Below are positions 1 through 11,170 of a DNA stretch of 64,000 nt, piece by piece. A model generated the notes under the pieces. It was given only the letters and a program-made list of their open reading frames with translations, had not been told where the DNA came from and did not search any database. This DNA comes from Candidatus Poribacteria bacterium. Lineage in GTDB: Bacteria > Poribacteria > WGA-4E > PCPOR2b. Made by a program: the position numbers and the translations under genes. The stretch lies in contig OZ244587.1 in assembly GCA_965218095.1 (NCBI GenBank), forward strand, positions 288,001 through 352,000, written 5' to 3'. How positions within the stretch are numbered: the stretch's first letter is position 1; each line of letters starts with the position of its first letter.

Positions 1-1613
1 TCCTCAGATTCAAATTCTTCCGGCACGGGCCCGTAGAGCCCCGAAAGGGTAATTTTGTGAATCGCTCGTTGATTCTCCCCGAAGGCGGTCTGAAGCTTGG
101 TGTTGATGATAGTGTGTGTACGTGAAAGTGAATACGGCTTTTTCCCTGCACAGGGAATTGTCAAAAGGACCCTTTTATCCTTTGGAGGCGCGTAATTTGA
201 TGGAATGGCAAAGGAATCCGGCGTATAATCCAGCGAAATAGTCGGCTGTTCTTTCTGAAGATATGAAGCCGTTTCCTCTTTCAAAAGTGCCGGGAAAAGT
301 TCCAATTGATAAGGGTTTCTCTCGACCGTACGCCGATTTTCTGACGTGGAGACATCCACAACCGTTTTTGCCATCCGGCTGGCAAACGCTTCATTATTTT
401 TGATTAACCAGTCCACCGCCTTGCGGATGCCCCGCCCTGTCGAAGCATGATGGACTAATTCTTCGAGTGCGTCATCGGCTTCAATGGCGTCCTTCATACG
501 AGAAAGCAGCCCCGCTTCCAACTCGAAATTATGCAAGGCGATCGCCGCATAACATTCGCTCTTGTATTTTCCGGTCGAAGTCCGTTTATAGCTTGTCGCT
601 TCCATTAACGTGCGTTGCATTTCATCAAGTGAAACCTCCCGGCAGATGCGGCAGGTACAAGTCAGCTCGTCTAATTCCATGAGTTTTCGCTTCGCTCGCG
701 TCAGTGAATCTGAATAGTTGAGGCCACGTGCTGCTTGAATATAGCTGGTGCTGTCAAAGCTATCGACACCCATGTAAGCCAGTATAGGTGCCAATTCACC
801 GGAGACGCCGAAGGCGTGGATGGGGGTATGATGCCGCTCTGAATCTGGAATCGCTTTTTGAACTCCGCAGATCCGCTCAAGCACCGCCGAATCCTGTTTC
901 CCCCGCAGTGGTACTAAAGAGCCGACCGCAAGTCCAAATGAGGGCAGTACGCCCAAAAGCCGGTCGAAAACCTGCCTGACATAACTCTCAATATCCGATT
1001 GGGATTGTCCATGACAGCAAACGTATAGAAAGGGAGGGCGCGCTTTGGCTGTGAGCAACGTAGCCACGCGACAGGCATTCTCCAGACTTAGGTTCATCCG
1101 TTTCTCAGCTTCGGAGCGTTCTAAACCCGGTGGTAACGGATAATCTAAAGAAGCAATAATTTCTCCCCCAAAGTCTTCTTGAAGTGCGAGAATATCATCG
1201 GCTTCGGTTTCCTTTTCAATTCCAAATTCCTTTAGGTCTAACCCTGTGTTGTAAAGCAACTTAAATCCACCAGAGTCGAGAAACAGGGGGGCATTATAAA
1301 CACCGTTTACTTCTTGATACCATTCGCGCATTGTTTTTTGACGCCATTTTCTTAAATGTTTGCCCTCAAACGGGAAGTCCAAAAAGTGCAGGACTTGGGA
1401 TAACATCGGCGCATCGTGCTTCATCAAATCACGGAGAAGGTACTTCCAGATGCCACCGCCGCGCGGTGTTGAACCGGTCATAAATGCAATGACAGGGTAC
1501 AGAATCGGCGTTAATAAAGGTGACAACGGTTCGCCATTGCGTTGCAAACGAAGTTCACCGATTCTACCGCCTTTTCTCTGAACGGTTGTATGGTAAGTTG
1601 GAACTGTGTTCAT
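1..1613 (-). CDS. tRNA-guanine transglycosylase (TGT/DpdA)-fold protein with a C-terminal DUF5591-like domain; 3' end lies outside the window
   Basis: Not in the ORF track. Manual translation from ATG at 1613 stays open to position 1 (>=537 aa): MNTVPTYHTT...PLFLDSGGFKLL...ASLDYPLPPG...CCHGQ...GLAVGSLVP...PIHAFGVSG...GVDSFDSTSY...CTCRIC...IALHN, then LLTIPCAGKKPYSLSRTH...TLSGLYGPVPEEFE. Confidence 0.85.
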   Translation of the reverse strand, partial: MNTVPTYHTTVQRKGGRIGELRLQRNGEPLSPLLTPILYPVIAFMTGSTPRGGGIWKYLLRDLMKHDAPMLSQVLHFLDFPFEGKHLRKWRQKTMREWYQEVNGVYNAPLFLDSGGFKLLYNTGLDLKEFGIEKETEADDILALQEDFGGEIIASLDYPLPPGLERSEAEKRMNLSLENACRVATLLTAKARPPFLYVCCHGQSQSDIESYVRQVFDRLLGVLPSFGLAVGSLVPLRGKQDSAVLERICGVQKAIPDSERHHTPIHAFGVSGELAPILAYMGVDSFDSTSYIQAARGLNYSDSLTRAKRKLMELDELTCTCRICREVSLDEMQRTLMEATSYKRTSTGKYKSECYAAIALHNFELEAGLLSRMKDAIEADDALEELVHHASTGRGIRKAVDWLIKNNEAFASRMAKTVVDVSTSENRRTVERNPYQLELFPALLKEETASYLQKEQPTISLDYTPDSFAIPSNYAPPKDKRVLLTIPCAGKKPYSLSRTHTIINTKLQTAFGENQRAIHKITLSGLYGPVPEEFESE

Positions 1614-1726
1614 AGTATGGTGTTTTTCCGCCGGTCCATTTAAGAACTAGCGATGCAATGGGATTGAGCAGAATCCGTTCTAATTATCGAATCCATAGTG
1701 TCTTCTATGCAATTAGTTTCGTATCT

Positions 1727-2344
1727 TCAGAGGGACGAAAAAATGAACTGCTTGAGAAAAGTGGTTCTTGCATAAAAAGCCCTCGTTATACTGCCATGTC
1801 CCTTGCCTTTGGTCCTTGGCTGAATATATACTCCCATTTTTCCGGTTAAAGTTGAAAAACCCTTCGTGCGAATTGTCTCTCTTACGAGATCATAATCGGT
1901 TCTGATTTGATCGTAGATCTCGGGATTATCTAAGTCGAAGGCTTTCACGGTATAAAGTATAGATTGCTTTTCTTGTTTGCTCTCCCAAATTCTGGCAGCA
2001 ACGATTAGTTTCCTCAATTTGGCTAATAAATGGCTATTCTCAAAATCAGTACTTTTAACATTGTAGGCATCAATCATCGTAATTGCCATTGTTTCCTTGA
2101 CCGTCAGCTTTCCACTTTTTAGATACTTCAGAGGAATGATTTTTAGTTCCCAAGAGCCAAAATTTGGAGATTGAGAGGAGTTAATTGGTAAATTAAGGTG
2201 ACGTTCAAGAACGTGCCCTGCCCAACCTTTATTTGGTTTTCCTTCTTTGAAAACCGTTACCTCGTATTTATCAGCCAACAATCGAAGGTCTTGCCCGATA
2301 AGCTCAGACAATTTCAAGAGTGCTTCTTGTCTCTGCATATTCAA
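1727..2344 (-). CDS. MutH/Sau3AI-family endonuclease-like protein
   Basis: NKGWAGHVLERHL, SPNFGSWELKIIPL, KETMAITMI and QPRTKG...RAFY align by eye with MutH/Sau3AI motifs (KGW.G..LE, PDF...ELK.IP, RPK....RAF). Confidence 0.8.
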   Translation of the reverse strand: MNMQRQEALLKLSELIGQDLRLLADKYEVTVFKEGKPNKGWAGHVLERHLNLPINSSQSPNFGSWELKIIPLKYLKSGKLTVKETMAITMIDAYNVKSTDFENSHLLAKLRKLIVAARIWESKQEKQSILYTVKAFDLDNPEIYDQIRTDYDLVRETIRTKGFSTLTGKMGVYIQPRTKGKGHGSITRAFYARTTFLKQFIFSSL

Positions 2345-2366
2345 TTCCTCTACAATGAACGCCTAA

Positions 2367-3368
2367 TTACTCCGCGGGTAGCTCATTGAGGCGCTTTTGA
2401 GCAATCTGGTTATACAATTCCTCTTTCTCAATCATCACCCATTTTCGGTTATACTTTTCCGCGGCGATTCCGGTTGTCCCGGTCCCGGCAAATGGGTCGA
2501 GAATAAGGTCATCTTCATTGGTTCCCGCTAAGACGAGCCGCTCAACCACTGCCAACGGCTTTTGCGAAGAGTGTTTTCCATATTTTCGTTCGGAGGGCTT
2601 AGTCAGCGGAATTTCCCACATATTCCGCATCTGCTTGTTACTGTTCATCGCTTTCATCGTATGATAATTGAACGTCCAATTTTTTGCCTTCTTACTTTCA
2701 TTGTTGACTGCCCATAAGATGAACTCGGTAGACTCCGTAAACATCCGACAAGTAATATTGGGCTGTGCATTCGGTTTATACCAGACAATTTGGGTAATAA
2801 TCCGCCGGTCAAATATATTTTGAAGAATAAACCCAAGTGTAAAGATGCTGTGAAACGACCCAAAAACAAAGATATTCCCGTTTTCCTTGACAACTCTCAG
2901 GACTTCGGTGACCCAATCGAGTGTGAACTGGAAATATTCGTCTTTTGAAAAAATATCCCAACCTTCCTGCATGGTAATATGGGAACTGAACGCCCAGCCC
3001 AACCCCCTCTTTTGGGACATATTGAACGGAGGGTCAGCGATGCAGCAATCGAAGACGCTGTCCGGCAAAGAAGGCAGAATACTCAGGCAATCGCCGCATA
3101 AAATCTGATTGACGGAAAGATTTTCAAGTGTCGTGTCCGAAGATAAGGTGAGAACGGCTTTCGATGGGGCTGTCTGTATCTGATTTTCTGACGCGACTGT
3201 GGACTCCGCTCCCCGATCTGGGTCGAGAACAGGCTTCGGTAGGAGTGGATGGACTCCCGTTGCAAGATATTGAATCAGTTGGGCTTTATTTAACAACGAG
3301 TATCCTCTTAATCCACGTTTTTTCGCTTCTTTTCTCAGATCTTTGTCTCGCATTTGATGGAAATTCAT
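2367..3368 (-). CDS. Beta-class N4-C/N6-A DNA methyltransferase with an N-terminal Rho_N-like helix-extended-helix domain
   Basis: DPPF catalytic motif precedes the DPFAGTGTT SAM motif; HSSQKP; N-terminus DLRKEAKKRGLRGYSLLNKAQLI. Confidence 0.9.
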   Translation of the reverse strand: MNFHQMRDKDLRKEAKKRGLRGYSLLNKAQLIQYLATGVHPLLPKPVLDPDRGAESTVASENQIQTAPSKAVLTLSSDTTLENLSVNQILCGDCLSILPSLPDSVFDCCIADPPFNMSQKRGLGWAFSSHITMQEGWDIFSKDEYFQFTLDWVTEVLRVVKENGNIFVFGSFHSIFTLGFILQNIFDRRIITQIVWYKPNAQPNITCRMFTESTEFILWAVNNESKKAKNWTFNYHTMKAMNSNKQMRNMWEIPLTKPSERKYGKHSSQKPLAVVERLVLAGTNEDDLILDPFAGTGTTGIAAEKYNRKWVMIEKEELYNQIAQKRLNELPAE

Positions 3369-3402
3369 TGATTTTCACTCCCTCGATTCCTTGATAGACA
3401 GG

Positions 3403-5142
3403 TCAATCTTTTGATTCACCACAATCCATCTGTTGACGTAGTACCGTCGTTGCTTCTTCGTCTACCGACAGCGTTCCCTCGTCCAACACCACGCCATACG
3501 CATCCCGTGCTGCTTCAAGCGAAACCTTGCTGTTCTTGACGTCGCGGGCCACATCGGCCGGAGGACGTAAAAGCGGGTCGCCCCATCCCCCACCGCCAGC
3601 CTGACGATGATAAATCCGCTCACCGGCCTTCATTGATGTGGAGATCATTGTCCGCAACACTTCATCGCTCTCATTGGTGTGGTGGAGCAGGTTGATCGAA
3701 CCCCTACCCGGCTTCCCACCGTAGAGCCCGTAGGGCAGGTGGTCCCGTCGGTCAGACCGGATCACCAGATGCGCTTCGCCAGACAACAACTGCCATTCGC
3801 GTTCAAGGCCCAAGCCGCCGCGGAATTTTCCGGCACCGCCACTGTCCTGTACATACCCGTAGCGTTCGATGTGCACCGGATATTCGCATTCCGCCTGCTC
3901 AATTGGGATATTGCTCGCAACGTTGGCGGGGTTGCACAGTCCGTCGTTTCCATCACGGTCGGGGCGCGCTCCCCAAGTACCGGACATCAGTTCGTAGTAG
4001 ACATATGGCGTCCGATCCTCCCGCTGCCCGCCAATGATAACCAGGGTATTGCCCCCCTCGCCGGCGGCTAAAACACGGTCCGGCAGCAGCCCGGCTAACG
4101 CGCCAAAGACGGTGTCCGCCAACCGAAACCCGGTGATGCCGCGCATTGAGGAAGCCGCTGGCATGACGCCGTGAACCACTGTGCCTTTCGGCGCGATGAT
4201 TTCCAGCGGCTTGAACATGCCGGCCGTGTTCGGAATATCCTCACGCATCACCGAGCGGACGCATAGCGCAACCACCGATGCAGTGAAGGAGAGGGTATTG
4301 TTGATGGCGCCACGGACCTGTGGGTTTGTGCCGGTAAAATCAGCGGTAAGGGTGTCACCTGCCACCGTCATCGTTACCTTCAGGCGCACGGGTGGCCCGC
4401 CGACGCCATCGCTGTCCATGTAGTCCGTGAAGGTATGGCTGCCATCGGGCCAGGAGGCGATTTCTGCGCGGACGAGACGCTCGGTATAATCGATGAGGTC
4501 AACAGCACAAGTGGCAAACGTTTCCAGCCCATAACGTTGGATCAGCGTGTGCACCGCGCGCTCGCCGATGTGGCAGGCCGCCAGTTGCGCGCGTAAATCT
4601 CCGATAGCCATCTGCGGCACCCGGACATTCGCACGCAGGAGCGTGAAAATTGCCTCATCGGGTTCGCCACCACGATACAGTTTCAACCAGGGGATGCGGA
4701 AGCCATCCTGGAAGATTTCGGTATTATCACAGGCAGAGCTGCCAGGCAGGCGTCCGCCCAGGTCCAAATGATGAGCGGTGCTCACGGCGAATGCCACACG
4801 CTGGTCATCCCAGAAGACGGGTTTAACGATGAAGATATCCGGGATGTGCATCCCGCCGTCAAAGGGGTCGTTGAGGATAAAAACATCGCCGGGCTGTATA
4901 TCTCCGTCGAATTTCTTAAACAGTGTTTCCATCGCGAAGGGGACCGAACCAAGATGGAGGGGAATCGTGATGCCCTGCGCAATCATTTCGCCATTGGTGT
5001 CACACAGAGAGGTCGAGTAGTCCAGACAGTCCCGCACGATGGTCGAGTAGGCAGTGCGATATAGGGCCATTGCCATCTCATCAGCTGCTGATGCCAGTGC
5101 ATTCTGCATAATCTCGCGTGTAATCGGATCGATCTCAGACAT
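3403..5142 (-). CDS. Hydantoinase B / 5-oxoprolinase family subunit
   Basis: RTAYSTIVRDCLDYS, NDPFDGGMHIPD, HHLDLGG, SGGAGKFRGG and GGGGWGDP motifs. Confidence 0.92.
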   Translation of the reverse strand: MSEIDPITREIMQNALASAADEMAMALYRTAYSTIVRDCLDYSTSLCDTNGEMIAQGITIPLHLGSVPFAMETLFKKFDGDIQPGDVFILNDPFDGGMHIPDIFIVKPVFWDDQRVAFAVSTAHHLDLGGRLPGSSACDNTEIFQDGFRIPWLKLYRGGEPDEAIFTLLRANVRVPQMAIGDLRAQLAACHIGERAVHTLIQRYGLETFATCAVDLIDYTERLVRAEIASWPDGSHTFTDYMDSDGVGGPPVRLKVTMTVAGDTLTADFTGTNPQVRGAINNTLSFTASVVALCVRSVMREDIPNTAGMFKPLEIIAPKGTVVHGVMPAASSMRGITGFRLADTVFGALAGLLPDRVLAAGEGGNTLVIIGGQREDRTPYVYYELMSGTWGARPDRDGNDGLCNPANVASNIPIEQAECEYPVHIERYGYVQDSGGAGKFRGGLGLEREWQLLSGEAHLVIRSDRRDHLPYGLYGGKPGRGSINLLHHTNESDEVLRTMISTSMKAGERIYHRQAGGGGWGDPLLRPPADVARDVKNSKVSLEAARDAYGVVLDEGTLSVDEEATTVLRQQMDCGESKD

Positions 5143-5681: not shown

Positions 5682-6761
5682 TTATCCATCATCAACTGTT
5701 TTCGCTAGATAAAATAGAGCGTCACCGCACAGCTCTTCGACCTCTTCCATTGCAGCTTCCAACTGTTCTTTCGAGGAACATTGCAGTAGGAGCCGATCCG
5801 CGGTAAGTGTGATGTAACGCTGCGGATCTGTATAAAGGAACTCTACCTGCAGATTGGTCTCCTTGACAACCCGATACCCATTTCCTACCGAAATCGCATC
5901 ACGAATTTCCAATCCATGAAAATTATTGTATAACACTTTTGCCCGTAGATCTTCCGGCGAAACCTCCGGGAAAGGCTGGTCTGATTCCGCTTCGGCCGCC
6001 TGCTCCTTCGATTCGCGGAGTGCATCTTGATCGCTTGCCGAATCAACGATGTCTTCTTCATCACCAACTTTCGCTTCTTCCGAATCATCCGCCAATTCCT
6101 GTTCGTCAGCAGTTTCTTCCGCTTGACTCAACTTCAGTACATCAGAAAGGACGCTCTGCACCGTGTCAGGTGTTTCTGGCATCGGCTGTGGGTGTGCCAG
6201 TATTTGCTCAAGAGTTCGCGCACAGAGTTTGAAGACAAATGGATGAAACGCAAGCGCCTCTGGGTCAGCGATTTCAAAAAGCGATCTCGCAACGAGCGCA
6301 ACTTCCGCCTTCTCCCGGTACCCCATCCGTGTTAGGCGTGTTTCACATGCTTTGAGCGAATGCAACATGGTGCTGATAAAATCCGGGGTAATCAGTTCAG
6401 GCAACACTTCAAAACGGAACCTGTCGCTGATTTCTTCAGGGTCCTCCTCATCTTCTCGTATTGATTTGGTGTCATCTACATTGTCTTCATCTTCCAGGAA
6501 GGGGATATCGGACGCAAGCAATTCCAGCGTCTTTTCGCACAACAGATCCTGATCAAAAGTTACATTTTCAAACTCAGGTTCATCAAGCAGTAGTTTGCTC
6601 TTCATGATTTTGTCCTGTAACATTTCTTCATCGGACCTCGCGGTTTGTAATGCCCGTTGCTTTTGAAGAGCCAACTGCTTGCGCCTGGATTTTTGATTTT
6701 GTTGACGCTTTTCTCGTTTACGTGCAATGTTGAGACGCCGATTTTTCTTTTTTTTAGCCAT
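5682..6761 (-). CDS. Hypothetical protein with a very basic N-terminus and an acidic body
   Basis: 359-aa ORF with a consensus promoter upstream; no family recognised. Confidence 0.75.
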   Translation of the reverse strand: MAKKKKNRRLNIARKREKRQQNQKSRRKQLALQKQRALQTARSDEEMLQDKIMKSKLLLDEPEFENVTFDQDLLCEKTLELLASDIPFLEDEDNVDDTKSIREDEEDPEEISDRFRFEVLPELITPDFISTMLHSLKACETRLTRMGYREKAEVALVARSLFEIADPEALAFHPFVFKLCARTLEQILAHPQPMPETPDTVQSVLSDVLKLSQAEETADEQELADDSEEAKVGDEEDIVDSASDQDALRESKEQAAEAESDQPFPEVSPEDLRAKVLYNNFHGLEIRDAISVGNGYRVVKETNLQVEFLYTDPQRYITLTADRLLLQCSSKEQLEAAMEEVEELCGDALFYLAKTVDDG

Positions 6762-8281: not shown

Positions 8282-9845
8282 CTGGATACTCGCCGGGTTA
8301 TCCGGTGTCCTACTCACCCTTAGCTTTCCGAGTTTCAACCTCTTTCCGCTTGCGTGGATCGGTCTAATTCCCCTGCTGATTGCCCTCAAATCCGCTTCGA
8401 GTTGGAAATCTGCTTTTTGGCACGGCTATGTCACCGGGGTGGTCTTTTTCTTCGGATTGGTTTACTGGATTATCCTGCTTTATCCCTTCGCGAACATCTT
8501 CGTAACAACACTCGGCTGTGTGCTGTTGGTCGGCTATCTCGCAGTTTACATCGGCGTTTTTTCTGCACTGCTATATCAACTTCCGTGGAAATCTGGTCTG
8601 TCTTTCATCTTCATAGTGCCTGCAATCTGGACGGGGTTAGAGTGGGTGCGAAGCTGGATGTTGACCGGCTTTCCGTGGGGGAGTATGGGATATTCTCAAT
8701 GGAACAATCTGCCAGCGATTCAGGTCGCGTCGATCGCCGGTGTGCATGGCGTGAGCTTCGTTGTTGTTCTCTTCAACGCAGCAATTGCTGATTTCATCCG
8801 CACTTATCCCGCTTGGAAACGCCAACAGACTGCAACACCCCTGCGCTTTGTGATGACTGAAAAACGTGGCATTATCATACCGATTGCCATTGTTATTGCT
8901 TCCTTTGTTTATGGTGTGTCTTCCCTGTCTAATCCCGTTGATACAACCACAAATATTAAGATTGCCCTCGTGCCCGGTAATGTACCGCAGCTTGAAAAGT
9001 GGAATCCCAAAAATCTCTCCTCAATCTTCAAGCGGTATGTCAAGCTGATCGAGAAAGCAGACGCTGCCGAGCCAGATCTAATCATCTTGCCTGAAACCGC
9101 TATCCCCGGCGCAATCTTTTCCGGCGGACAAAATCGATACCGTCGAAAGCTAGAACAACTGTTAAAAGATCAGCAAATCTACCTGCTGACGGGTATTCCA
9201 CACCTTACGCCTGACGAGAAAATATACAATAGAGTGTTTCTGCTGTCCCCGGCCGGCAAACAACTCGGAAGCTATTCCAAAATGCACCTTGTCCCTTTCG
9301 GGGAATATGTGCCTGTGCCGTCGTGGTTGAGTCGCTATCTCCCAAACCTGATCCAATTTGCGCCATACGAACCGGGCAAGTCAATAGATCTTTTTCCCGT
9401 CCCGTCCACTGAAAACGCGCAGATGGGTATTGCAATCTGTTTTGAATCCTCATTTCCGGATCTTTTCCGCAAATTTGTCAAAAAAGGGGCAAACGTGATG
9501 GGGATTCTGACAAACGATGCCTGGTACGAGGGAACGACGGCACCAGAGCAGCACCTTGCTATGGCGCCATTCCGTGCCGTCGAGAATCACGTGGCGGTTT
9601 TCCGTTGCGCCAACGGCGGCATATCGTGTATAATTGATGCGCTCGGCAGGACAATCACGACGCCGATTCCACCCAGTGATACTCAGGGTTTTCTCATTGA
9701 GAACCTCCCGTTAAACAGTCGGGGCAAAACGGTTTACACGCGCTATGGTGACTGGTTTCCGATTCTCTGTTTTCTCGTGAGTGTCCTTCTGGTCCTTTAC
9801 TATCATCGGATCTGGTTTATCTCAAAGTTCAAACGCGGTTCGTAA
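8262..9845 (+). CDS. lnt: Apolipoprotein N-acyltransferase
   Basis: TM N-terminus, LTGFPW, PETA, YSKMHLVPFGEY, ICFES, TNDAWY, RAVEN. Start is 8247 or 8262. Confidence 0.95.
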   Translation: MKSCPNSWILAGLSGVLLTLSFPSFNLFPLAWIGLIPLLIALKSASSWKSAFWHGYVTGVVFFFGLVYWIILLYPFANIFVTTLGCVLLVGYLAVYIGVFSALLYQLPWKSGLSFIFIVPAIWTGLEWVRSWMLTGFPWGSMGYSQWNNLPAIQVASIAGVHGVSFVVVLFNAAIADFIRTYPAWKRQQTATPLRFVMTEKRGIIIPIAIVIASFVYGVSSLSNPVDTTTNIKIALVPGNVPQLEKWNPKNLSSIFKRYVKLIEKADAAEPDLIILPETAIPGAIFSGGQNRYRRKLEQLLKDQQIYLLTGIPHLTPDEKIYNRVFLLSPAGKQLGSYSKMHLVPFGEYVPVPSWLSRYLPNLIQFAPYEPGKSIDLFPVPSTENAQMGIAICFESSFPDLFRKFVKKGANVMGILTNDAWYEGTTAPEQHLAMAPFRAVENHVAVFRCANGGISCIIDALGRTITTPIPPSDTQGFLIENLPLNSRGKTVYTRYGDWFPILCFLVSVLLVLYYHRIWFISKFKRGS

Positions 9846-9900
9846 AGGATCAGACCACAAGTCAAGGGACATGTATTACTTTGACTTTGTTACATTTGGG

Positions 9901-10003
9901 CGTAGAGCCTGCTGCTAGCTGGTTCATGAAGTTGACCTTGAAAGGATGGAACAGGCTCCGAAGGATCGGGATTCTCGGAACGGAACTTGGCAGCCCGCTC
10001 TAC
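9901..10003. repeat. REP/MITE-like element with GTAGAGC...GCTCTAC ends (copy 1)
   Basis: Shares CGTAGAGCCTGCTGCTAGCTG.TTCAT and TGGCA.CCCGCTCTACTTC with 45809-45883; the middles differ. Confidence 0.75.
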
Positions 10004-10111
10004 TTCGATTCTAGCTATAATCTAACAAAGTCAAGTTACTTTACTCTTTGGAACACATGATTACGCTTCAAGTAGTTCAAAACTGAAACATATTATACAA
10101 GGAGATTTAAC

Positions 10112-11170
10112 ATGGCAAAAGACGAAAAGGACAAAGCAATAGATCTCGCGATTTCGCAAATAGAACGGCAGCACGGTAAAGGCGCGATCATGCGTTTTAG
10201 CAGTGACGATATCTTGCCAGTTGAAGTGATTCCAACAGGCTCGCTCGCACTCGACATTGCGCTTGGCGTTGGCGGTGTTCCTCGTGGTCGGATCATTGAG
10301 ATCTTCGGTCATGAATCCAGCGGCAAAACCACGCTCGCTTTACATGTCATTGCTGAAGCTCAGAGGATGGGAGGCACAGCGGCGTTTGTCGATGTTGAGC
10401 ATGCGCTTGATCCGATGTACGCCAAACAGATTGGAGTGAACATGGAAAGCTTGCTTATCTCTCAACCCGATACCGGCGAGCAGGCGTTAGAAATTGTTGA
10501 AACCTTAATTCGCAGCGGGGCGATCGACGTTGTTGTAATTGACTCTGTGGCGGCACTGACGCCCCAGGCAGAAATTGAGGGGGAAATGGGCGATGTCCAT
10601 GTGGGGTTATTGCCTCGTTTGATGTCTAAAGCCTTGCGAAAGCTTTCTGGAGTTGCAAGCAAATCGAAGGCATGCATCATTTTCACGAATCAGATTCGCC
10701 AAAAGATTGGCGTTATGTTTGGCAACCCAGAAACGACGCCTGGCGGACTTGCGCTCAAATTTCATGCTTCGGTGCGACTTGAGACTCGACGGGCTGAAAC
10801 CCTCAAGGTTGGGGACGAGATGGTCGGAAACCGTGTCCGTGTCAAGGTTGCCAAGAACAAGGTGGCGCCTCCCTTTACGCAAGCTGAATTTGAAATGACC
10901 TTCGGAGAGGGAATCTCCAAGATTGGAGATCTACTTGACGTGGCAACGAATCAGGAAATCATACAGAAAAGCGGAGCCTGGTTCTCCTATAACAGTGAAC
11001 GTCTCGGACAGGGCAGAAATAACGCGAAAGAATATCTGATCCAGCACCCGGAGGCTGCTGTTGAAATCGAAGCCAAAATCCGCGAGAATCTTGGCATTTA
11101 TGCCCAATCTGCTCCCGCATCGATTCTCGGTGTTGATGACGACGCTTCTGATGAAGGATCGGATGCGTAG
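10112..11170 (+). CDS. recA: Recombinase A
   Basis: [37 protein letters not shown]. Confidence 0.99.

Follow-up and report, generated by a model that had tools for sequence, protein, structure and literature searches.

A stretch of 64,000 nucleotides from a sponge-symbiotic Candidatus Poribacteria bacterium (the window, G000:C1:288001-352000, where G000:C1 is the 6.35 Mb single contig of the genome under study) begins with three co-oriented genes on the minus strand. They encode a DNA methyltransferase, a nuclease and a protein, called the fusion here, in which a transglycosylase domain of the TGT family is joined to a DUF5591 domain. The open reading frame (ORF) list places them at window positions 1-3368 with intergenic gaps of 22 and 113 bases, as a reading made earlier from the sequence alone had described. 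That sequence-only reading had also remarked that the third gene is missing from the ORF track. It is, because the gene runs off the window on the left; when the genome is read past this edge, as had been proposed, the complete fusion comprises 635 amino acids (aa). The features are as follows, positions without a contig name being those of the window.

2367..3368, minus strand: methyltransferase ORF (ORF list), 333 aa; beta-class N6-adenine DNA methyltransferase with a CcrM-like core (Pfam, PADLOC, NCBIfam, PDB)
1727..2344, minus strand: nuclease ORF (ORF list), 205 aa; MutH/Sau3AI-fold endonuclease, presumed restriction partner (Pfam, NCBIfam, PADLOC, PDB)
3..1613, minus strand: fusion ORF (ORF list), 537 aa in the window, open at the left edge
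G000:C1:287706-289613, minus strand: whole fusion gene, 635 aa (genome read past the window edge)
354..1613, minus strand: TGT domain of the fusion, residues 1-420 (Pfam TGT, conservation, AlphaFold2 model, fold match)
258..353, minus strand: linker, residues 421-452, predicted disordered (pLDDT <50 at residues 420-452)
1..257, minus strand: DUF5591 domain (ArcS core, C1), residues 453-537 in the window (Pfam, PDB, fold match)
G000:C1:287706-288000: rest of DUF5591, up to residue 635, beyond the left edge

The reading favoured here, with a probability of about 0.45, is that the locus holds two adjacent, separable modules: a type II restriction-modification (R-M) pair and a TGT-DUF5591 DNA modification enzyme with a product of the 2'-deoxyarchaeosine (dG+) type. 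The sequence-only reading had joined all three genes into one system. Its account of the third gene stands, as a TGT with a fused ArcS-type domain that is not the housekeeping Tgt and belongs to a defence-linked family; the single three-gene system is, as stated, not supported.

Domains and relatives of the fusion protein

The evidence supports a predicted catalytically complete TGT joined to the core domain of ArcS. Pfam matches are to TGT (PF01702; E 5e-14, 52.6 bits, cut-off 26.3) and to DUF5591 (E 1.6e-15, 57.7 bits, cut-off 26), and a score of 59.3 bits with TIGR00449 (cut-off 47.6) places the protein in the TGT superfamily. Every TGT, zinc-site and DUF5591 motif named earlier from the letters was located by script: DSGGF at 1263-1277, LDYP at 1137-1148, GVDSFDS at 750-770 and CTCRIC at 642-659, followed in the second half by PCAGKKPYSLSRTH at 114-155 (residues 487-500) and SGLYGPVP at 21-44. 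The first of the latter two satisfies the ArcS C1 motif PC-X3-KPY-X2-S-X2-H, as worded in the available parts of PMC10516641 and PMC5699537. In a family alignment of 42 full-length members, 29-61% identical to the query, residues D113, S114 and G116 of DSGG, D157 of LDYP, D287 of GVDSFDS and C319, C321, C324 and H361 are at least 90% conserved or invariant, the invariant ones being D113, D157, D287, C321, C324 and H361. In the DUF5591 half of the same alignment C488, K492, P493, Y494 and S497 are invariant or at least 90% conserved. D287 is the second aspartate of GVDSFDS and aligns with the aspartate of GVDLFDS in the P. horikoshii ArcTGT; we take this position to be that of the TGT nucleophile. 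Pfam, the motifs and the conservation across 42 members thus bear out the suggestion of a TGT-fold enzyme with a fused second modifying domain.

AlphaFold2, run on the family alignment, yields a confident two-domain model (pLDDT 91.3, pTM 0.89) whose domains are joined by a disordered stretch, residues 420-452. This linker varies between the two Poribacteria paralogues of the fusion, whose matches split near residues 420/452. By VIA-align the TGT domain is closest to ArcTGT (1IQ8, Z 38.0), followed by bacterial Tgt (32.4), QTRT2 (28.9) and DpdA (7UI4, 23.2). The DUF5591 domain matches AF0587 (2Q07) both in a PDB search (E 1.4e-5) and in fold (Z 16.5 over residues 466-634). Two haloarchaeal ArcS sequences used for comparison lack the N-terminal half-barrel including DSGGF and extend about 150 columns past the end of the fusion, whereas in the fusion the barrel is complete and DUF5591 is the last domain, the C-terminal part of the protein aligning with the ArcS C1 domain. 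A Pfam scan of the full protein finds no PUA, TGT_C1 or TGT_C2 domain.

Against the models of individual enzymes the fusion lies below all NCBIfam cut-offs: TgtA (TIGR00432) 80.2 bits of 350, ArcS (NF040592) 72.8 of 440, DpdA (NF041059) 25.7 of 200 and Tgt (TIGR00430) 25.1 of 306.75. The PADLOC model of DpdA (PDLC02807) matches at E 5.6e-6. A housekeeping Tgt is ruled out, since the canonical Tgt of this genome is a separate gene at C1:4888672 (550.9 bits on PF01702) and the fusion scores low on the Tgt model; the grouping that the sequence-only reading had named as telling against it is not seen.

The phylogeny that it had called for was run as a TGT-domain tree of 28 rows, rooted on this genome's own Tgt, with one outgroup, one DpdA and several long branches. 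The fusion family falls in a clade (support 95/94) with the short 'second TGT' of plasmid islands, a haloarchaeal 345-aa TGT, two extra TGT paralogues of this genome and phage 9g DpdA, apart from TgtA and ArcS and thus outside the tRNA clade. Phage 9g DpdA as a query against plasmids gives eight partial matches, all hypothetical proteins at 45-62% coverage; these were left out, hence the single DpdA.

The genome holds five TGT-superfamily genes. The two extra paralogues are short (G000:C1:3554616-3555377, locus L071, and G000:C1:678095-678865, locus L073; 344 and 393 aa) and give weak DpdA matches; here and below, L numbers denote compared loci. Their neighbours are ATPases, HerA-like for one paralogue and of the BrxD-like AAA type for the other. 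The pairing with the HerA-like ATPase resembles the HerA/TGT 'BRC' systems proposed in 10.1101/2025.10.09.681413.

Partners of the fusion family and the proposed DNA modification

A metagenome scan yields 80 fusion loci at 29-70% identity, whose neighbouring ORFs were clustered and annotated through representatives. The following genes recur beside the fusion.

GHKL ATPase: 26/80 loci
Second TGT, about 415 aa: 22/80 loci
DpdJ-like helicase (NF041067, 163 bits, below cut-off): 20/80 loci
DUF6884 protein: 20/80 loci
QueC: 15/80 loci
DpdK-like PLD (45.8 bits): 14/80 loci
QueD: 13/80 loci
QueE-type radical SAM: 13/80 loci
DpdH-like NTPase: 13/80 loci
Vut_1/YhhQ transporter: 9/80 loci
NurA-HerA: 3/80 loci (separate count)

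At least one que, YhhQ, DpdJ/K/H-like, GHKL, DUF6884 or second-TGT gene is present in 51 of the 68 loci with at least three neighbours, NurA-HerA not being counted in this tally. Grouping the fusions at 50% identity leaves 18 informative groups outside Poribacteria; 17 of these have a partner, 13 have the DpdJ-like helicase and one has the second TGT. On plasmid NZ_CP119784 of Haladaptatus sp. YSMS36, genes for a helicase, a PLD protein, a DUF6884 protein, a TGT and an ATP-binding protein are followed by two fusion genes, and on plasmid NZ_CP082247 of Natrinema sp. SYSU A 869 the fusion gene precedes that of a 1571-aa DEAD/DEAH helicase. In haloarchaea whose chromosome already encodes TgtA and ArcS, the fusion gene is plasmid-borne and lies within helicase/PLD/DUF6884 islands. 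This gene set matches that of the dpd islands, for which the available text of 10.1101/2025.02.24.639861 gives QueD in 78%, YhhQ in about 9%, helicases, PLD and DUF6884. DUF6884 is not equated with DpdC here: DpdC is assigned to DUF6884 in that preprint and to DUF328 in another, as far as the accessible parts of both go, and the 153-aa DUF6884 neighbour matches no NCBIfam model.

Only 104 clusters at E<1e-30 emerge from an exhaustive profile search of 1.84 billion representatives, which marks the family as rare. Two TGT+DUF5591 clusters of a protein atlas (123 and 59 members) mix Bacteria and Archaea, Methanobacteriota and Chloroflexota being commonest. A further atlas cluster, auto-named DpdA, has 57 members mostly from Planctomycetota-type bacteria, with DUF6884 in 72% and TGT in 51%; a TGT fused to another 'finishing' domain may therefore exist. 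A phage origin of the fusion is rejected, as tblastn with each of its domains gives no match in 50,697 phage records and a viral-contig scan returns no full-length relative and three weak TGT-only matches at 25-26% identity.

In a sample of the phylum the fusion is patchily distributed, in 47 of 151 genomes (own family 21/25, a second family 8/10, a third 17/100, the rest 0/15), and Poribacteria carry two paralogous lineages of it. The second copy in this genome (G000:C1:1273194-1275081, about 9190-10919 of locus L004) is 69% identical, contains a TAG stop and is shortened. It sits between IS4/IS5-type transposase genes, directly preceded by a divergent QueD/PTPS-like gene and with DUF488 and NMN-adenylyltransferase-like genes nearby.

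Genes for FolE, QueD, QueC and QueF and one QueE-like gene are present in the genome, from which it follows that the host makes preQ0. All lie on the chromosome outside the 64-kb window, which agrees with the earlier remark that no que genes are visible in it. Neither dpdB/dpdC nor dpdD-K occur among the genes flanking the fusion, the DpdB and DpdC families not having been searched in the window or genome-wide. The arrangement is unlike that of canonical dpd clusters, again as supposed.

The que, Dpd-like, HerA-NurA and GHKL partners in 17 of 18 groups, together with the haloarchaeal plasmids, lead us to read the fusion as a DNA 7-deazaguanine 'insert-and-finish' enzyme. Its likely activity is to replace guanine in DNA by a 7-deazaguanine, which it would then process to the final base. 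With Asp287 as nucleophile, the TGT domain would exchange guanine in DNA for preQ0 supplied by the host FolE/QueD/QueE/QueC pathway, and the tethered DUF5591 domain would then attach an amine at the nitrile group of the base now in place. The expected product is an amidine, either dG+ or an adduct of the lysine type that archaeal ArcS forms. In the accessible portion of PMC10516641, expression of DpdA2 of phage nt-1 in E. coli leads to dPreQ0 in plasmid DNA, and with the stand-alone DUF5591 protein ArcS2 the product is dG+. ArcS of T. kodakarensis, in the text available from PMC11298593, places lysine onto the preQ0 nucleoside or its 5'-phosphate and does not need tRNA architecture. The 7-deazaguanine mark may act as a second, methylation-independent modification of host DNA, a self-label or shield. 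In other lineages the fusion would serve Dpd-like, HerA-NurA or GHKL/second-TGT modules; in Poribacteria it would act without a dedicated restriction partner, the R-M pair being merely a neighbour in a small defence islet. The defence link first suggested for the third gene thus appears at the level of the family, which in other lineages sits beside predicted 7-deazaguanine DNA-modification and restriction genes.

The restriction-modification pair and its separability from the fusion

Judged by their protein families, the methyltransferase and nuclease appear to form an ordinary, self-sufficient type II R-M pair with GATC or GANTC as candidate sites. The methyltransferase matches Pfam N6_N4_Mtase (PF01555, E 1.3e-49) and PADLOC MTase_II (9.5e-74). 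Its best NCBIfam match is the CcrM model, at 222.7 bits under a cut-off of 830, and the nearest solved chain is CcrM 6PBD (E 1.2e-47). DPPF at 3024-3035 and FAGTGTT at 2472-2492, both located by script, are the DPPY/F and FxGxG motifs of type II methyltransferases. Unlike CcrM, with which it matches over residues 86-329, the protein carries about 85 additional N-terminal residues ahead of the core and has no counterpart of the CcrM C-terminal domain. At the N-terminus (window 3306-3362, minus strand) residues 3-21 give a weak SAP-domain match, below cut-off (E 0.0064).

The nuclease matches Pfam MutH (E 2.1e-13, 50.4 bits, cut-off 23) and PADLOC REase_II (3.9e-13). NCBIfam scores are 70.2 bits for the Sau3AI model and 56 bits for the MutH model, each under its cut-off, and aligned PDB matches are Sau3AI 4PXG (2.2e-7) and MutH 2AOQ (1.2e-5). 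It keeps the ELK of the D..ExK motif (PNFGSWELK, window 2141-2167, minus strand) and has an asparagine at the position of MutH Asp70, which corresponds to the first catalytic aspartate of Sau3AI; PN[FA]GSWELK is found in 8/8 orthologues. The pair thus draws on the same families as type II systems that combine a beta-class N6-methyladenine (m6A) methyltransferase of the CcrM/HinfI class with a MutH-fold nuclease such as Sau3AI, and it stands alone in related genomes. It differs from them in a nuclease of a single 205-aa domain bearing this asparagine. CcrM recognises GANTC. Genome-wide, the observed/expected ratio (O/E) of GATC is 0.68, second lowest of 16 palindromes, and that of GANTC is 0.92, seventh of 16. 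GGCC is avoided more strongly than GATC (O/E 0.42), which indicates past or present GGCC-directed restriction.

Neighbourhoods were compared at 20 loci of the window's orthologue group and seven loci of the paralogue group, the broken copy counted; the genomes are related and are not independent samples. The methyltransferase adjoins the fusion in 14 of the 20 orthologous loci, and the MutH-like nuclease is present in five. No methyltransferase is found in the other six, one of which has only 1.5 kb of flank, or in any of the seven paralogue loci (7/7). The nuclease is missing in seven of the 14 loci with a methyltransferase. An unrelated restriction endonuclease (REase; DUF6996/DUF6997, PADLOC REase_II 7.6e-31) on the opposite strand replaces it in two loci, and a decayed remnant is present in one.

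L030:10525-11343, plus strand: replacement REase, DUF6996+DUF6997, PADLOC REase_II
L078:1653-2423, minus strand: replacement REase, DUF6996+DUF6997, PADLOC REase_II
L028:11301-11612: replacement REase remnant, DUF6996/DUF6997 family

The methyltransferase beside the replacement REase is 82-88% identical to that of the window, and the nuclease has been swapped within one R-M lineage. Orthologues of the methyltransferase (66-72% identity) with an adjacent MutH-like gene and no fusion are found in four genomes of another genus, in a sister family, where the fusion occurs in 0/38 genomes; in one of these lone pairs the nuclease gene is interrupted by a transposase gene. Pair and fusion are therefore separable both ways, given the lone pairs in four genomes and the fusion without a methyltransferase in 6/20 and 7/7 loci. 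The module has different flanking genes in three genera and hence three contexts. A Gfo/Idh/MocA oxidoreductase gene turns up repeatedly but not always on one side, a pattern that points to rearrangement within the locus and not to transfer.

A divergent QueD-like gene lies at the fusion in seven Poribacteria loci (L004, L037, L039, L040, L041, L044 and L052), in two pieces in L040 and L044. It directly precedes the fusion in L039, and in L037 the order is QueD-like gene, methyltransferase, fusion. Whole or broken, it abuts the fusion in five of the seven paralogue loci.

Just upstream of the fusion, in three loci drawn from both paralogue groups, lies an ORF of 121-124 aa with no Pfam, NCBIfam or PADLOC family. 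In two of the three it occupies the usual place of the methyltransferase.

L041:7815-8189, plus strand: 121-124-aa ORF, upstream of the fusion
L025:10684-11046, minus strand: 121-124-aa ORF, upstream of the fusion
L049:9270-9638, plus strand: 121-124-aa ORF, upstream of the fusion

Elsewhere in the window, a strongly acidic protein of 359 aa with no Pfam family is encoded at 5682-6761 (minus strand) and is syntenic in relatives at 57-63% identity.

Alternative readings, known systems and significance

Several observations weigh against two separable modules with DNA as the target of the fusion. The closest matches of the TGT domain are tRNA enzymes in both profile hidden Markov model (HMM) score and fold, with TgtA and ArcTGT ranking above DpdA, and the tree that sets it apart is small, with its one outgroup, single DpdA and long branches. 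The metagenomic loci are partly near-duplicates, and at three of the closer ones the neighbours are limited to ABC transporter, sigma factor and Lon genes. The phage and viral-contig searches returned no full-length relative. Within Poribacteria the fusion is syntenic and conserved to the level of nearby housekeeping genes, at 87-88% identity against 91-93% for the neighbouring hydantoinase B, and the paralogue set lies among metabolic-looking genes. One DpdJ-like helicase query finds nothing in the whole genome at E<=1e-10, and no DpdB-like ATPase adjoins the fusion in the window. Finally, the methyltransferase stays by the fusion at 14 of 20 loci in three contexts, so a functional tie may exist.

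The alternative that survives best, which we consider unlikely, is an enzyme acting on tRNA or another RNA, a bacterial one-protein counterpart of TgtA plus ArcS that makes an archaeosine-like base in RNA and lies beside the R-M pair by accident. It would account for the tRNA enzymes as best HMM and fold matches, for a chromosomal, syntenic gene that is well conserved in Poribacteria, for the metabolic-looking neighbours of the paralogue and for a genome in which one helicase query reveals no restriction-type partner; the missing PUA domain is a weak argument against an RNA role. The tRNA-family scores, however, remain far under their cut-offs of 350 and 440, the C2 domain is missing as well, and the fusion lies apart from TgtA and ArcS in the tree. 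A tRNA enzyme also sits poorly with presence in only 47 of 151 phylum genomes, with pseudogenised copies, with DNA-defence or que partners in 17 of 18 dereplicated groups, and with haloarchaea that already have chromosomal TgtA and ArcS and hold the fusion on plasmids in helicase/PLD/DUF6884 islands.

A rather improbable alternative keeps the three genes together as one system in which methylation, 7-deazaguanine and nuclease act jointly, for example with both marks needed at G-A sites or with a nuclease that reads the 7-deazaguanine state. The genes are co-oriented and closely spaced; a scan of window 1-3700 finds 6 promoter and 3 terminator sites against 4.3 and 3.9 expected, no commoner than chance, and is itself uninformative on operon structure. 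The adjacency of methyltransferase and fusion spans two taxonomic families and outlasts loss of the nuclease, the methyltransferase stands between the QueD-like gene and the fusion in L037, and the conserved asparagine at the MutH Asp70 position hints at a non-standard nuclease. The available part of PMC10484667 describes a phage DpdA whose target motif is strictly GA, and GATC and GANTC both contain GA. Opposed to this are the pair alone in four genomes of a genus that has no fusion, the fusion without the pair at orthologous and paralogous loci alike, and a nuclease exchanged for an REase on the opposite strand, as is typical of autonomous R-M. Linkage in Poribacteria also counts for less among related genomes, and the window's methyltransferase or nuclease occurs in none of the 80 metagenomic loci. 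As stated, the one combined three-gene system of the sequence-only reading is not upheld, because the pair and the fusion occur apart and the nuclease is swapped or lost; on the evidence of gene neighbourhoods, the claim is a weak one.

Least probable of all is a fusion that only finishes or reads, its TGT domain flipping out and holding a preQ0 inserted by another transglycosylase with DUF5591 alone catalytic, which would fit the second TGT and GHKL ATPase of distant loci, the two extra TGT paralogues here beside HerA-like and BrxD-like ATPases and the TGT-like N-domain that canonical ArcS keeps without base exchange (in the accessible text of PMC5699537 and PMC10516641), but whose mere binding domain would not be expected to retain the whole barrel, DSGGF and invariant D113, D157 and D287 in 42 members, and whose second TGT shrinks to one of 18 groups after dereplication at 50%.

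Under the two-module reading, DpdA2 plus ArcS2 of Vibrio phage nt-1 is the system with the same two proposed activities, a TGT-family transglycosylase and a DUF5591 protein with PCx3KPYx2Sx2H and no PUA (PMC10516641, in the parts available). In the fusion both lie in one polypeptide, on cellular chromosomes and plasmids, with no phage relative by tblastn; the TGT half scores far below the DpdA model cut-off, and the DUF5591 half passes the family cut-off without being a stand-alone protein like phage ArcS2. Archaeal TgtA and ArcS, the best HMM and fold matches, have the catalytic aspartate pair, zinc site, ArcS motif and Rossmann-like C1 in common with the fusion, which differs from them in its sub-threshold scores, its lack of C2 and PUA, its place outside their clade and its defence-linked neighbours. 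Distant fusion loci share DpdJ/K/H-like, DUF6884, queC/D/E and YhhQ genes with the bacterial Dpd system of the Salmonella Montevideo type (DpdA/B/C and DpdD-K). In contrast to Dpd, no DpdB-type (DndB/ParB-like) partner is seen, all Dpd model scores are below cut-off, the window has no restriction genes of Dpd, and the finishing domain is ArcS-like, with an amidine expected, rather than DpdC, with an amide.

DNA 7-deazaguanines are known from bacterial Dpd (dPreQ0 and dADG) and from phages (including dG+). To our knowledge, every case described so far relies on two enzymes working one after the other, a transglycosylase and a finishing enzyme separate from it. A literature search of main texts, in part excerpts, came upon no account of a cellular TGT-DUF5591 fusion; supplements fell outside it, and such fusions might appear in Supplementary Data S1 of PMC10516641 or in the GATOR-GC preprint's tables.

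A broader proposal, doubtful as a whole, is that TGT-DUF5591 fusions are an undescribed class of DNA archaeosine (dG+-type) synthases, made as one polypeptide and spread over both bacteria and archaea. They would form a portable self-marking arm for DpdJ/K-like helicase-PLD modules, for HerA-NurA, for GHKL with a second TGT and, in Poribacteria, for type II R-M, where 7-deazaguanine and m6A would cooperate in self-protection at overlapping GA sites. If true, the fusion would be the first candidate for an archaeosine-type modification of DNA in host genomes and could offer a compact one-gene tool, usable in E. coli, which makes preQ0. Sponge-symbiont genomes, which are viewed as rich in stacked modification systems for DNA, would gain one more example.

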